Shown in pieces: positions 1,441 through 23,280 of a stretch of 24,335 nucleotides of DNA. The notes under the pieces were generated by a model that had not been told where the DNA came from, did not search any database, and was given only the letters and a program-made list of their open reading frames with translations. Each line of letters starts with the position of its first letter. Position 1 is the first letter of the stretch. Source of the stretch: an uncultured Gammaproteobacteria bacterium (lineage in GTDB: Bacteria; Patescibacteriota; Microgenomatia; CAZUUL01). Position numbers and translations under genes: made by a program. The DNA lies in assembly GCA_964623155.1 (NCBI GenBank), contig CAZUUL010000002.1, positions 1-24,335 on the forward strand, read 5' to 3'.

Positions 1441-2016
1441 ATGTCACGGTTTGAAAATAGAATCAAAATGGCGTACAAATATGACATGGAGAAAAAGATA
1501 AAACGTAAGAGAATCTACGCCTTTATTGACAGCCAGAACCTACATCTGGGTATGAGCAAAGATATTTACAAAGGTAAAAAGAAGATTTACGCTGGTTGGA
1601 AACTGGACTATAAAAAGTTTAGAGAATATTTATCCGATAAGTTTCGGGTAAGTATGGCTTTCCTATTTATTGGCTACATTCCACAAAATAAAAAACTCTA
1701 CCAGCAACTTAGGTCTTTTGGATATAACCTCGTCTTTAAGCAAACAGTAAAAGATAATTTAGGCAAGGCTAAGGGCAATGTGGATGCAGAATTGGTTCTT
1801 CACGCAGCAGCCATAGAATACTCACAGTACGATAAAGCAGTAGTTGTTTCAGGAGATGGTGATTTTCGCTGCCTTTATGAGTATTTAGTCGAATATAAGA
1901 AGCTTCTTAAGATCATCATTCCCAATAGGCAGGCGGAATCCTCACTTCTTAAACCGTTTCAAAAATATAAAGTATTTTTATATCGCGAGAGACAAAGACT
2001 TGAATTTAAGCAATAA
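1441..2016 (+). CDS. NYN-domain (LabA/DUF88, PIN-like) predicted ribonuclease
   Basis: Motifs AFIDSQNL, KGNVDAELV, VVSGDGDF. The start could be a later Met. Confidence 0.85.
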   Translation: MSRFENRIKMAYKYDMEKKIKRKRIYAFIDSQNLHLGMSKDIYKGKKKIYAGWKLDYKKFREYLSDKFRVSMAFLFIGYIPQNKKLYQQLRSFGYNLVFKQTVKDNLGKAKGNVDAELVLHAAAIEYSQYDKAVVVSGDGDFRCLYEYLVEYKKLLKIIIPNRQAESSLLKPFQKYKVFLYRERQRLEFKQ

Positions 2017-2074
2017 AAATGGGAGGCGTCGCAATATGACACGTAGTCATATGGTCGTATTCTCCCTCGTGATA
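2012..2074 (-). ncRNA. candidate small structured RNA convergent with the NYN gene
   Basis: Minus strand: GGGAG...AUAUGAC-UACGU-GUCAUAU...CUCCC then AUUUUUAUU overlapping the NYN stop codon. Own promoter at 2080-2108. Confidence 0.6.
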
Positions 2075-2079
2075 ACCGC

Positions 2080-2108
2080 ATTCTAACAAAATCTCATTTC
2101 CACGTCAA
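2080..2108 (-). promoter_or_regulatory. sigma70 promoter with extended -10 driving the candidate RNA
   Basis: TTGACG (2108-2103), 17 nt, TAGAAT (2085-2080), with a TG at the extended -10 position; no ORF follows. Confidence 0.65.
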
Positions 2109-2119
2109 CAACCTATAGT

Positions 2120-2415
2120 TTAAACAGCTGTCATAAATAAGACGAAGCCTTTTTGGTTCATAGTATCTTTAGTTTTACTGTATAGTAAACGATTGAACTA
2201 CAGCATCAACAGTATCTTTAGCGATGTCGGTACTAAACTCGAGTTTGTAATCAGAAACTTCTCCTGGTTTACCGGTAAAGCGGGTAACGAGGAACATTAA
2301 TAAACCAAATTAATATTGCCAAACCAAGCAATAGAACTGGAACAATAAATATAATTATTGGCGCAAAGCCTTTTTGCGATAATTTATTCTTGCTTGCATC
2401 TAATAGCTGCTTTAC
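2120..2415 (-). pseudogene. remnants of pilin-like-leader surface protein genes
   Basis: KGFAPIIIFIVPVLLLGLAILIWF (class III signal-like), an out-of-frame C-terminal piece ending ...DAVVQSFTIQ* at 2175, and a separate stub MNQKGFVLFMTAV* at 2161-2120. Confidence 0.45.
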
Positions 2416-2499
2416 TAAACTGACGGTAGCAAATCCAAAATCTTCATCTGCTTTATCCAACCACTCTTTTACTACTTTCGGATCGGGTATATTATCCAT
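2416..2499 (-). pseudogene. truncated HEPN gene (N-terminal 28 codons only)
   Basis: MDNIPDPKVVKEWLDKADEDFGFATVSL matches the first HEPN helix (WLxKAxEDxxxA). The start overlaps the MNT stop; the frame then reads into unrelated sequence. Confidence 0.6.
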
Positions 2500-2815
2500 A
2501 GAGGATGATTCCCTTGCTTGCAATAGTTTTATTTATAAAAGGATCTTTAAGCTTAAGGCGCTGATCAAATTCCTGCTGTGTATACACAATAAAATCGCAG
2601 GCTACTTCTCTATCAATCAATCTATCAACTTCTCTTGCTCTATCTATACTTCGCTGGGGCACCTGGTCTTTAATAAGAAAAAAATCCAGATCATTTGGTT
2701 CCTCTAGGTCATTAGAGGCAGCTGAGCCGAAAAGGATTACCTTTTTAGGATGGTATTTCTCTAGGAGCTGTTGAGCAACTTTTTTTGCCTGTTTTAAAAC
2801 TTCATCTTGAGTCAT
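2492..2815 (-). CDS. minimal nucleotidyltransferase (MNT) antitoxin
   Basis: KVILFGSAA...NDLDFFLI...CDFIVYT...KGIILYG. ATG at 2815 lies 7 nt after a TG-T-TATACT extended -10. Confidence 0.85.
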   Translation of the reverse strand: MTQDEVLKQAKKVAQQLLEKYHPKKVILFGSAASNDLEEPNDLDFFLIKDQVPQRSIDRAREVDRLIDREVACDFIVYTQQEFDQRLKLKDPFINKTIASKGIILYG

Positions 2816-2880
2816 AGTTATGAGTATAACACAAAAGGGGGGCTTTATTGAGTAAATCTGAAGGTGGAGAGGAGTGGCAC

Positions 2881-2943
2881 TTGACAATTCTTCTAATTTA
2901 TCTTAAAATACTTTAAGAATTGTAACAATTGTTAAATTGTAAC
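2881..2943 (+). promoter_or_regulatory. promoter and tandem operator-like repeats of the second ATPase gene
   Basis: TTGACA (2881), 17 nt, TAAAAT (2904); AATTGTAAC/AATTGTTAA/AATTGTAAC at 2918, 2927 and 2935. Confidence 0.6.
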
Positions 2944-2951
2944 TTAAAATT

Positions 2952-21499: not shown

Positions 21500-21557
21500 A
21501 CTGGTTATATCATAGTATCTCGCAAACTCTCTTTTTACAAGCTACAATAGACTCATC

Positions 21558-22160
21558 ATGGATTCTCTGGAATGGATTTTTTTAGGAATCGTCTTTATGC
21601 TGGCCGCTGGTCTTTCAGGACTGGGAGGATTACCTAGTAGCCTGCCATCAAGCCCCGGTTCTCCTACTATTCCCACAACCGCTCCTGTGGCAACGCCAAT
21701 TCCAACTGCAACCCCTACTCTTCCTGGTGGTGGACCCACGGCAACCCCAACACCCGGAACTGCTGCCTGTATTGATTGTGAACCAGATGGCTGCTGGCCG
21801 ATCAATGTGGCAAGAAGCATGGTGGCCTTTGCTCAATCCATTAATCCATCTGTTGTCGAATCTTCAAGTTTGGGAAAAGCAACCCAAGCAGTCTGCCGCG
21901 AGAAACAAAAACATCTTCCCGAGACACTATTGGCAAATAGACTGAGTACTTACGGGTTTACGGGTACCAATGTTGAAGAGTATGTAGATCTAATCAATGT
22001 TACTTCTTGTGGATCAGATCTAAATTGCCAGGCTCAGACTGCCTGGAACTCACTTAAAACTTCACATGATTTGGAAAACAAACTTCGCTCAGGTAATTTC
22101 AACCGTATCGGCACTGGCCACTGCAGTGCCTTTTGGTCGGTGATAATTGGGAGAGAGTGA
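21558..22160 (+). CDS. membrane-anchored protein with P/T linker and degenerate CAP/SCP-like domain
   Basis: TM, PTATPT repeats; RLSTYGF...AWNSLKTS...NFNRIGTG...FWSVIIG resembles the CAP C-terminal pattern. Confidence 0.6.
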   Translation: MDSLEWIFLGIVFMLAAGLSGLGGLPSSLPSSPGSPTIPTTAPVATPIPTATPTLPGGGPTATPTPGTAACIDCEPDGCWPINVARSMVAFAQSINPSVVESSSLGKATQAVCREKQKHLPETLLANRLSTYGFTGTNVEEYVDLINVTSCGSDLNCQAQTAWNSLKTSHDLENKLRSGNFNRIGTGHCSAFWSVIIGRE

Positions 22161-22195
22161 GTTTTACTTCAATTAGGAGCTATGTCGGCGAACGA

Positions 22196-22435
22196 GGCGG
22201 GCGGGATGGAACAACGACATTTTGTTTTTCTTCTCCCTCCTTTCTAATTTTCAAACGGTGCGAAAATTTTCTGGGAAGAGAGCGATGTGGAGGCGGCTGC
22301 GGCGACCTGTCCTGAGCCTAGTCGAAGGATTCCTTTTCCCCAGACCCCTTTTCCTCGCCGCAGCCGCCTATCACACACCATTTTTCGCGCCGGAAATAAA
22401 AACAAAAAAAGGAGACACGCTTGGCCCACCCTGCC
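22196..22435 (+). other. long nested hairpin element
   Basis: Nested stems 22196-22201/22430-22435, 22220-22229/22398-22407, 22256-22266/22382-22392 and a perfect 15 bp 22291-22305/22355-22369. Confidence 0.7.
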
Positions 22436-22533
22436 CATCCGCGCGTGTCTTAAAATGCTCCCTTGAATAATAGTTCTTGTTTAACAAGTAAGATTCTGTC
22501 AAGAGGAATTTATGTTGTAATATCAGTCTAATT

Positions 22534-22562
22534 TTGAACCCTTAGTGATCAAATGGTATAAT
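22534..22562 (+). promoter_or_regulatory. sigma70 promoter with extended -10 driving a candidate RNA
   Basis: TTGAAC (22534), 17 nt, TATAAT (22557), TG at 22554. Confidence 0.7.
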
Positions 22563-22568
22563 CATATT

Positions 22569-22648
22569 ACAAAGATCCGCTTTTCGAACTGTCACCGTAT
22601 GGTGGCGTGTCTGGGACAACCAGTCTAGAAGGCGGATCGATCTCTTTT
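22569..22648 (+). ncRNA. candidate DUF3800-associated structured RNA
   Basis: 11-bp closing stem GAUCCGCUUUU/GAAGGCGGAUC, inner hairpins GUCACC/GGUGGC and UGUC/GACA, then CUCUUUU. G-U pairs favour the + strand. Confidence 0.7.
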
Positions 22649-22653
22649 ACACG

Positions 22654-23280
22654 TTAGGAAAATTCCCACAGATCCTCGATTTTCTTTCTGATGACCGCGA
22701 TGTAATCGTAAGCATCTGTTTTGCTTTCAGCGTATCTCCTATAGATTGCTCCAGCCACCATATCTGCCATTTGGATCAGAACATTCGTGTCAGAGTTCAC
22801 AAATTGAAGTTTTTGGAATACCCGTTCCTCCTTGTTGTTTAGTTCTTTGCGAAGATAGCGGACAACTTCTCGCTTATACAAACGGTCTCCATGTCCATCG
22901 AGTCTAATTTTGGCTTCTTTGATTGTGCCGAAGTTATGCTTTAATACCATTTTGATGGCATAGTTGTAAAATGACTGCTTAGAGGTTTTTAATTCGTGGC
23001 TTCTGACTTTCCGTTTATCAAACACAATTGCACGAATACGGAATTTGAAAGAAGCTATACGCTTTAAGAATTTCAATCGTAGTCCTCGATTACCTTTGTT
23101 AAACTTAAACTCAAAGTGGTCTGATTTCTTCAATTCCCGACGCAATTCTTTGATAGCAACTGCAGTTTTCTCCGCTTCCAGTTCGTCGTCAAAAATGATA
23201 CAGGCGATCACAAAAACAGGGCTGGATCCCTTATCAATTTTAAATCCGGGATCACCGGAATCGTCAATAAAAACAACCAT
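22654..23280 (-). CDS. DUF3800 family protein
   Basis: VFIDDSGDPG N-terminus, EFKF, C-terminal LIQMADMVAGAI. Confidence 0.85.
   Translation of the reverse strand: MVVFIDDSGDPGFKIDKGSSPVFVIACIIFDDELEAEKTAVAIKELRRELKKSDHFEFKFNKGNRGLRLKFLKRIASFKFRIRAIVFDKRKVRSHELKTSKQSFYNYAIKMVLKHNFGTIKEAKIRLDGHGDRLYKREVVRYLRKELNNKEERVFQKLQFVNSDTNVLIQMADMVAGAIYRRYAESKTDAYDYIAVIRKKIEDLWEFS

Follow-up and report, generated by a model that had tools for sequence, protein, structure and literature searches.

Small structured RNA genes convergent with three predicted nuclease genes in a Patescibacteria genome fragment

Introduction

What is encoded behind the three promoter-like sequences that face the 3' ends of nuclease-like genes in a fragment of a Patescibacteria genome? 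The fragment, positions 1 to 24,335 of contig CAZUUL010000002.1 (the whole stretch of 24,335 nt that was analysed, referred to below as the window), has a G+C content of 41.5%, and the closest relatives of its proteins are found in metagenome-assembled genomes of Patescibacteria (the candidate phyla radiation, CPR), e.g. Levybacteria, Gottesmanbacteria and Shapirobacteria. In a first-pass annotation made from the sequence, it had been proposed that an NYN gene, a 'DUF3800-like' gene and a DUF3800 gene are each met, immediately past the stop codon and on the opposite strand, by a small-RNA gene consisting of a promoter without an open reading frame (ORF) behind it, a long-stemmed structure and a U-tract. 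This arrangement was confirmed: the promoters, the folds and the U-tracts are present where they had been predicted and are kept in relatives. The window has three autonomous two-gene cassettes, in each of which a small RNA gene is combined with the gene of a predicted metal-dependent nuclease. Judged by Rfam 15 and the literature that could be searched, the RNAs of two of these cassettes are undescribed; one of the partner proteins of these two is unannotated.

Results

Three near-consensus promoters precede small folded RNAs

A promoter scan of the whole window returned 59 promoter-like sites, only three of which agree with the consensus at 10 or more of 12 positions and also have a TG extended -10 element. 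These are exactly the promoters that face the NYN gene (site 1), the gene of a 149-amino-acid (aa) protein (site 2) and the DUF3800 gene (site 3). The RNAs are about 55-70 nt each, highly structured, provided with their own near-consensus sigma-70 promoter and directed at the 3' end of the nuclease gene. The structure begins about 6-11 nt from the promoter at each site and is followed by a U-rich tract, and this tract reaches the convergent gene's stop codon or comes to within about 12 nt of it. Minimum free energies of the folds are -17.7, -28.1 and -30.2 kcal/mol at sites 1, 2 and 3, with z-scores of -3.2 to -3.6 relative to shuffled sequences (-3.6 at site 1); at none of the sites did any of 200 shuffles fold equally well. 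No tandem or direct repeats of the ToxI kind are present at any of the three sites. A perfect-consensus promoter (TTGACA-16 nt-TATAAT, 878-851, minus strand) was considered as a fourth RNA gene and rejected, as it drives an ATPase-like ORF. This ORF runs from 843 on the minus strand and has the P-loop-like motif GPRGTGKT.

The window was compared with the 4,227 families of Rfam 15. With E-values up to 10 permitted, no match was obtained at site 1 or site 2, and beyond the site 3 RNA described below only chance matches appeared (Corona_pk3, SOX2OT and sR35), far below their gathering scores. A coding reading of the RNAs was also rejected. In the alignment of the site 2 RNA the insertions and deletions are not multiples of three and break the frame, and at site 1 the only ORF behind the promoter is one of 27 aa (2006-2089), for which a small-peptide reading was entertained on account of a Shine-Dalgarno-like GGGAG before the ATG; close homologues keep neither this ATG nor its frame, and the changes compensate one another so that pairing is kept.

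The NYN gene and its RNA (site 1)

The gene at 1441-2016 (+) encodes, as longest ORF, a 191-aa nuclease of the NYN (LabA/DUF88) type (Pfam PF01936, 60.8 bits against a cutoff of 24.2, E 2.8e-16), for which homologues suggest a start about nine codons further downstream. The acidic residues of a PIN-like active site are intact in the translation, i.e. D30 in FIDSQN, D115 in VDAE and D148/D150 in SGDGD. More than 7,900 homologues were scored in Patescibacteria, the top ones being 70-80% identical, and among solved structures 2qip, a protein of unknown function, is nearest by sequence.

The facing promoter, TTGACG-17 nt-TG-n-TAGAAT, lies at 2080-2108 (-), and behind it an NYN-associated small RNA of about 57 nt is found at 2015-2075 (-), where covariance model R3 gives 86.6 bits on the minus strand only. 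The RNA starts with a 5' AUCAC tail, followed by an outer stem GGGAG/CUCCC and an inner hairpin AUAUGAC/GUCAUAU with the loop UACGU; its conserved internal loops are AAUACGACC and UUGCGACGC. The U-tract overlaps the NYN stop codon (2014-2016), and on the plus strand no U-tract comes after the hairpin.

A convergent RNA beginning with AUCAC or a clade variant of it was detected by a hidden Markov model at the NYN gene end in 61 of 77 loci, these being species representatives in which the gene end could be located. The RNAs fall into two groups. Group A comprises Microgenomates including the window (alignment A8, 15 sequences), and in its structure 98.1% of the cells are paired, with compensatory changes in 10 of the 14 pairs; among the unpaired nucleotides, no variation is seen in the AUCAC tail, the bases of the internal loops and the G-U of the loop. 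Model R3 matches every group A locus on one strand only, including three loci that were not in its seed (L088, L091 and L175). Group B comprises Saccharibacteria, Parcubacteria and others (A6, 36 sequences) and forms a 19-pair hairpin with 91.2% of cells paired and compensatory changes in 16 pairs. Its model R2 scores 60-77 bits on the RNA strand versus 20-30 bits on the other, and it detects neither the window RNA nor any other group A locus. The two groups have a common layout, the AUCAC start and a loop ending in GU, and were not joined in one alignment; that they are homologous is likely, not proven.

In 26 NYN loci the RNA has no Rfam match at gathering score. Nothing relevant on bacterial RNA motifs linked to NYN genes was found in the literature, which is weak evidence since subscription journals lay outside the coverage.

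Tandem or nearby NYN paralogues occur in L161 (1-1191), L116, L120, L125 and L159, each paralogue with its own RNA variant. The second RNA of L161 has another stem sequence but the same AAUCAC start, and it too closes with a hairpin and a U-tract; such loci offer a natural test set for cognate specificity.

The 149-aa protein family and its RNA (site 2)

The gene at 21050-21499 (-) encodes a 149-aa protein of an unannotated family in which the motifs EIDQSGK, IDEEYTGK and IGKxSxAH are invariant. The protein has no match in Pfam, NCBIfam or PADLOC. It is predicted by AlphaFold2 with a mean confidence (predicted local distance difference test, pLDDT) of 91.2 to have an RNase H-like fold; the best matches of the model in the PDB are RNase HI and the RNase H domains of reverse transcriptases, with template-modelling (TM) scores of 0.44-0.49 and E 7e-4, and the matches in BFVD are RNase H proteins with one phage DUF3800 protein at rank 23 (TM 0.48). 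The family of about 150-aa proteins comprises 83 close clusters and 443 confirmed metagenome stretches, and an exhaustive profile search extended it to 1,102 clusters at 50% identity.

By the first-pass annotation this protein had been called DUF3800-like. The two other family assignments of that annotation, NYN and DUF3800, stand by Pfam, but this one may hold at most at the level of the fold, since PF12686 is absent from all 37 family members scanned, even at E-values up to 1 (gathering score 21 bits). An alignment by hhalign of the 149-aa family (A1) with the DUF3800 subfamily of the window (A4) gave a probability of 4.9% over 19 aligned columns. Membership in DUF3800 was therefore rejected by sequence, and what remains is a putative fold-level resemblance: EIDQSGK is similar to the FIDDSGD of the DUF3800 protein in its N-terminal DxSG motif, and an RNase H-like fold is predicted, the model of the 149-aa protein matching folds of the RNase HI type and that of the DUF3800 protein instead RNase HII.

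The promoter of site 2, TTGCCA-16 nt-TG-g-TAGAAT, is situated at 20948-20975 (+), and the small RNA of about 67 nt at 20981-21047 (+), where covariance model R1 gives 78.4 bits. Its U-tract ends 2 nt before the stop codon of the gene (21050-21052). The RNA consists of an outer stem GUCGAGC/GCCCGAC, A-rich linkers and a bent inner helix GCGGACCCUCGCCG/CGGUGAGUGUGGCCG that is closed by the conserved loop GUnAAA.

When the 200 nt past the stop were compared on the opposite strand in 79 related loci, a clearly conserved element was seen behind a TTGACA...TGnTATAA promoter. An alignment of 32 of these RNAs made with MAFFT (A2) supports a 20-pair structure with 86.6% of cells paired versus 29-40% in slid controls (29-64% over the alignments A2, A6 and A8), and compensatory changes in 15 of the pairs; none of 500 shuffles reached any of these measures. 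The variable parts are the short A-rich linkers. At 52 loci of the family, model R1 finds a single RNA copy each, in every case convergent with the gene; it also detects the RNA in four loci that were not in the seed (L179-L182). No Rfam match at gathering score was obtained for the RNA in 20 loci of the family.

More distant relatives of the 149-aa protein (L049-L080) are accompanied by longer convergent RNAs with an extra GC-rich hairpin, in which the outer stem and the CCGUAA(C) hairpin are retained. R1 scores them weakly, at 14-17 bits, and they probably represent a sister RNA class.

The DUF3800 gene and DUF3800-IX (site 3)

At 22654-23280 (-) a DUF3800 protein of 208 aa is encoded (Pfam PF12686, 71.6 bits, 1.5e-19), with an N-terminal FIDDSGD and a C-terminal QxxD motif. 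Its AlphaFold2 model (pLDDT 91.4) matches archaeal RNase HII with TM 0.55-0.62, so that an RNase HII-like fold is predicted, and the protein also matches the candidate defence family PDC-M04A of PADLOC (5.4e-16).

The promoter TTGAAC-17 nt-TG-g-TATAAT lies at 22534-22562 (+). The RNA behind it, at 22574-22652 (+) with its U-rich tail CUCUUUUAC included, belongs to the already catalogued family DUF3800-IX: cmscan matches RF02968 at 22574-22642 (+) with 63.4 bits against a gathering score of 36.8 (E 6.7e-12) over model positions 1-67 of 67. This agrees with the remark in the first-pass annotation that Rfam includes RNA motifs associated with DUF3800. The match ends 11 nt from the DUF3800 stop codon (22654-22656), and the gap is occupied by the tail, so that the RNA ends 1 nt before the stop. 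In all eight loci of four homologous proteins (57-76% identity) DUF3800-IX is convergent and lies 0-6 nt past the stop, and the genes flanking the cassette differ wholly between these loci.

Directly upstream of the DUF3800 gene is an ORF of 33 aa (23305-23406, minus strand) that by eye corresponds approximately to the C-terminal part of a helix-turn-helix regulator and may be the relic of an earlier regulator gene.

Promoter, position and context in the relatives

In the relatives, the promoter was defined as TTGNNN-16..18-TANNN(T/A) ending 3-11 nt before the start of the model. It was present at 32 of 43 distinct loci of the 149-aa family (25 with TG), versus 3.8% of random positions in the same loci, and at 56 of 58 loci of the group B NYN RNA, where it ends 3-8 nt before the RNA, versus 4.1% of random positions; in group A loci it is visible by eye. 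A sigma-70-like promoter thus precedes the RNA in 74-97% of loci, compared with about 4% at random. The RNA of the 149-aa family ends mostly -4 to +19 nt from the stop codon, and for the group B RNA an overlap of 6-21 nt with the coding end is typical.

Each RNA family is found together with its own protein family and preserves specific unpaired nucleotides: the AUCAC tail and a U..GU loop in the NYN RNA, the GUAAA loop and GUGA bulges in the RNA of the 149-aa family, and the DUF3800-IX consensus in that of DUF3800. Across homologues a conserved promoter and a conserved, covarying structure, on which the first-pass annotation had staked its proposal, were found for each RNA, and its statement that the three RNAs resemble each other in layout and differ in sequence was borne out. 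As the arrangement is conserved in dozens of independent loci, it is more than chance.

The genes that flank these cassettes vary from locus to locus. ParE/RelB and BrnT genes adjoin NYN in L163, and different module types co-occur in two other genomes. In one of these, L182 (3157-4525), an NYN gene with a short RNA variant (AAUCAC, small hairpin and U-tract) is located directly upstream of a gene of the 149-aa family that has its own RNA (R1, 83 bits), with BrnT/CopG and AbiEii genes nearby. In the other, L175, an NYN gene with a group A RNA (193-252, minus strand, 64 bits) is accompanied by a DUF3800 gene with DUF3800-IX (2160-2229, minus strand, 56 bits), the two gene ends being about 2 kb apart. 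This contig is labelled Aenigmarchaeota archaeon, and it reflects either transfer into DPANN archaea or a mis-binned CPR contig.

Other genes of the window

Much of the window consists of genes of the toxin-antitoxin or defence type. These include pairs of a nucleotidyltransferase and a HEPN protein (MNT/HEPN) at 2492-2887 and 20090-20780, an AAA_14/DUF4143 ATPase, a Fic protein (13516-14640) and an AbiEii toxin (14769-15425). Downstream of the nucleotidyltransferase gene 2492-2887 (-), at the position expected for the HEPN partner, there are two short ORFs (2269-2523 and 2175-2297), which by eye resemble fragments of such a partner; between the end of the latter ORF (minus strand) and the promoter of the site 1 RNA downstream of it there are 67 nt. 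The pair at 20090-20780 is flanked by a direct repeat of 160 nt (19900-20059 and 20770-20929, 90% identical) and seems to be an insertion by which the 3' end of the 388-aa gene 18910-20076 was duplicated. The second copy of the repeat ends just before the promoter of the site 2 RNA.

A family of large Pro/Thr-rich paralogous proteins without Pfam match, probably secreted, is encoded at 4831-7044, 7044-8537, 17865-20076 and 23511-24335. Their 5' regions are repeated (17939-18238 and 23518-23817 are 82% identical), and in the copy at 17865-20076 the sequence is divided over two ORFs that overlap, which points to a frameshift or a pseudogene. What may be an SPFH/Band 7 gene (12599-13471, minus strand) is split into the ORFs 13139-13471 and 12599-13084 and may likewise be frameshifted or a pseudogene; the latter ORF, the sole half that was scanned, has a Pfam match that begins at profile position 79 of 176.

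Discussion

Relation to known systems

The nearest precedent for these cassettes is the set of eleven mutually unrelated RNA motifs associated with DUF3800 (DUF3800-I to -XI), several of which contain terminators and in which UAA is common; no specific functional hypothesis was offered for them (Weinberg et al. 2017, NAR 45:10811). Site 3, next to its PF12686 gene, is a member of this set. The RNAs of sites 1 and 2 are similar to it in that each is a structurally distinct small RNA beside one nuclease-like protein family, and the conserved GUAAA loop of the site 2 RNA recalls the common UAA. They differ in that they match no Rfam family, drum and skipping-rope included, and in their partners, which are NYN/PIN-like at site 1 and of an unannotated RNase H-like family at site 2. 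The general idea of a distinct structured RNA tied to a nuclease-like gene is already known from the DUF3800 motifs, and the finding is therefore not categorically new.

A second comparison is provided by the abiF motif (RCd22), which forms with AbiF (Abi_2) a type III-like toxin-antitoxin system in C. difficile and neutralises the AbiF toxin by direct RNA-protein contact (bioRxiv 10.1101/2025.04.15.648962). It too is an RNA motif that was tied to one nuclease-type protein family by comparative genomics, and the same mechanism is proposed here. However, AbiF belongs to the Abi_2/AbiD/F family and not to the NYN or RNase H-like proteins, and in the present cassettes a single-copy RNA is transcribed from its own promoter on the opposite strand, facing the stop codon.

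The antitoxins of ToxIN, CptIN and TenpIN are tandem 34-36-nt repeats, encoded upstream of the toxin and on its strand, that the toxin processes; these systems are mobile and associated with defence, and their RNA is expressed in excess. They have in common with the cassettes that they are two-component loci of a nuclease and a non-coding RNA, and they are distinguished by the orientation, the toxin folds and the repeats, for which the three sites have no counterpart. From type I toxin-antitoxin systems the cassettes differ in that the partners are nuclease-fold proteins of 149-208 aa and in that pairing with the start of the cognate mRNA is not in excess. The duplex energies between the RNAs and the mRNA start regions were equal for cognate and non-cognate pairs (-8.5 versus -8.9 and -5.7 versus -5.5 kcal/mol), and trans antisense pairing with this region, having no signal above the non-cognate pairs, was rejected. 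This favours protein binding over antisense control.

In type VII retrons a reverse transcriptase and an msr/msd RNA are combined with a DUF3800 effector (Mestre et al. 2020, PMC7736814). As is proposed for the cassettes, a structured nucleic acid there keeps a nuclease-like DUF3800 protein under control as part of a defence system. In contrast, there is no reverse transcriptase beside any cassette, and the RNAs are far shorter and lack the msr/msd architecture. The ORFs that flank the DUF3800 gene of the window are the 33-aa remnant and a protein without Pfam match, neither of which is a reverse transcriptase, and none was found among the DUF3800 neighbours in L171-L178.

A possible role for the RNAs

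As proposed in the first-pass annotation, the RNAs may act as antitoxins or as partners in a ribonucleoprotein, and the shared layout may have arisen by convergence; this much we infer from sequence. The reading that we favour, with chances that we judge about even, is that each RNA binds its protein and restrains the nuclease in the way of a type III antitoxin. The RNA would be produced in excess and would bind the cognate nuclease directly, keeping it inactive or restricted, as an RNA antitoxin of a type III toxin-antitoxin or abortive-infection system does. If phage attack or loss of the cassette, for example, stops transcription or leads to degradation of the RNA, the nuclease, being the more stable of the two, would be freed to cut nucleic acid of the cell or of the invader. 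The tail-to-tail packing would keep the pair together on transfer, and the terminator hairpin of the RNA would also terminate the nuclease mRNA.

This scheme is favoured because the cassettes are self-contained units in changing neighbourhoods, often among toxin-antitoxin genes, and because in each a probable nuclease is accompanied by an RNA with a strong promoter. It is further favoured by the multiple paralogues with matching RNA variants and the co-occurrence of modules (L175 and L182), by the fact that DUF3800 is a retron effector and matches a candidate defence family of PADLOC, and by the example of abiF, which shows that gene-associated RNA motifs can be protein-binding antitoxins.

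Several points weigh against it. The RNAs are single-copy, convergent and downstream, unlike the upstream same-strand tandem repeats of ToxIN-type systems, and no processing sites are evident. For a toxin, the NYN protein shows unusual conservation, with 70-80% identity across CPR classes, and it is very widespread, which could equally mean a housekeeping ribonucleoprotein for RNA processing. The overlap of 6-21 nt between RNA and coding end in many NYN loci makes a cis-antisense component possible. Finally, in those later papers that the literature search covered, the association of DUF3800 with non-coding RNAs is mentioned in passing, without experiment.

Alternative explanations

The main rival is a ribonucleoprotein enzyme, active as a complex, to which the RNA contributes as an indispensable cofactor, scaffold or specificity subunit; such an enzyme could process RNA as a housekeeping function of CPR bacteria or could be aimed at invaders. 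The conserved unpaired nucleotides and the tie of each RNA family to one protein family agree with such an enzyme, and the best argument for it is the NYN protein, the spread and conservation of which fit a core function. In addition, the single-stranded 5' tail of the NYN RNA, which is AUCAC in group A and several variants and clade-specific elsewhere, could pair with a target, and RNase H-fold nucleases with structured guide RNAs are known, the IsrB-omega RNA complex being among the weak fold matches. However, the tail is conserved within clades and not diversified, a hypervariable segment as long as a guide is lacking in all of the RNAs (what varies are short A-rich linkers), and the varied contexts, multi-copy genes and toxin-antitoxin neighbours are unlike those of a housekeeping gene. 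We consider this explanation rather unlikely.

Control in cis is judged improbable. In this case the RNA would act on the nuclease mRNA through the overlap of the 3' ends, by duplex processing or transcriptional interference (type I-like or by collision). It would account for the convergent genes, the 3' ends of which abut or, in most group B NYN loci, overlap, and for RNA promoters that look strong, and the A-tract/U-tract stem of group B reads as a terminator on the other strand too (20-30 bits). In the window, however, the overlap is at most 2 nt at site 1 (U-tract with NYN stop) and nil at sites 2 and 3, and in the 149-aa family the RNA mostly ends close to the stop. Moreover, conservation of loops, of internal-loop sequences and of a 5' tail beyond the overlap is not called for by such control, complementarity to the start of translation on the cognate mRNA is not in excess, and the nucleases are enzymes of 150-208 aa and not small membrane peptides.

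Ordinary bidirectional intrinsic terminators beside chance promoter-like sequences, without any RNA gene, would explain that all three structures end in U-tracts at gene ends, and terminator stems covary too, but this explanation is effectively refuted by the comparative data and is excluded because of the conserved promoters at a fixed distance, the strand-specific scores (R3 on one strand only, R1 always convergent with the gene) and the unpaired nucleotides that are invariant across phyla-level distances, besides which one RNA is a curated Rfam small-RNA family and no plus-strand U-tract follows the hairpin of site 1.

Significance

Taken at its widest, the proposal is that the RNAs of sites 1 and 2 are two previously undescribed classes of structured RNA and that, with the DUF3800 motifs, they make up one broad class of cassettes, abundant in Patescibacteria, in which a small RNA and a nuclease are convergent and a single-copy structured RNA serves as protein-binding antitoxin or governor of unrelated nuclease folds. 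This we regard as possible, at somewhat less than an even chance.

The DUF3800 RNA motifs have been functional orphans since 2017, and the same layout is now seen with two more nuclease families, for which no homology to DUF3800 is detectable by sequence and one of which, NYN, is among the most widespread small proteins in CPR bacteria. A curiosity thereby becomes a general pattern, and three small, clonable protein-RNA pairs are at hand that suit a direct test of the RNA-antitoxin idea. Two candidate RNA families with good support are added to the catalogue, as is a protein family of about 1,100 clusters that was without annotation. The pattern suggests that Patescibacteria, with their reduced genomes, make a heavy investment in nucleases under RNA control. 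If true, the broad class of cassettes would be a toxin-antitoxin or defence system of RNA and protein with a new type of architecture and would give the orphan DUF3800 RNA motifs a function.

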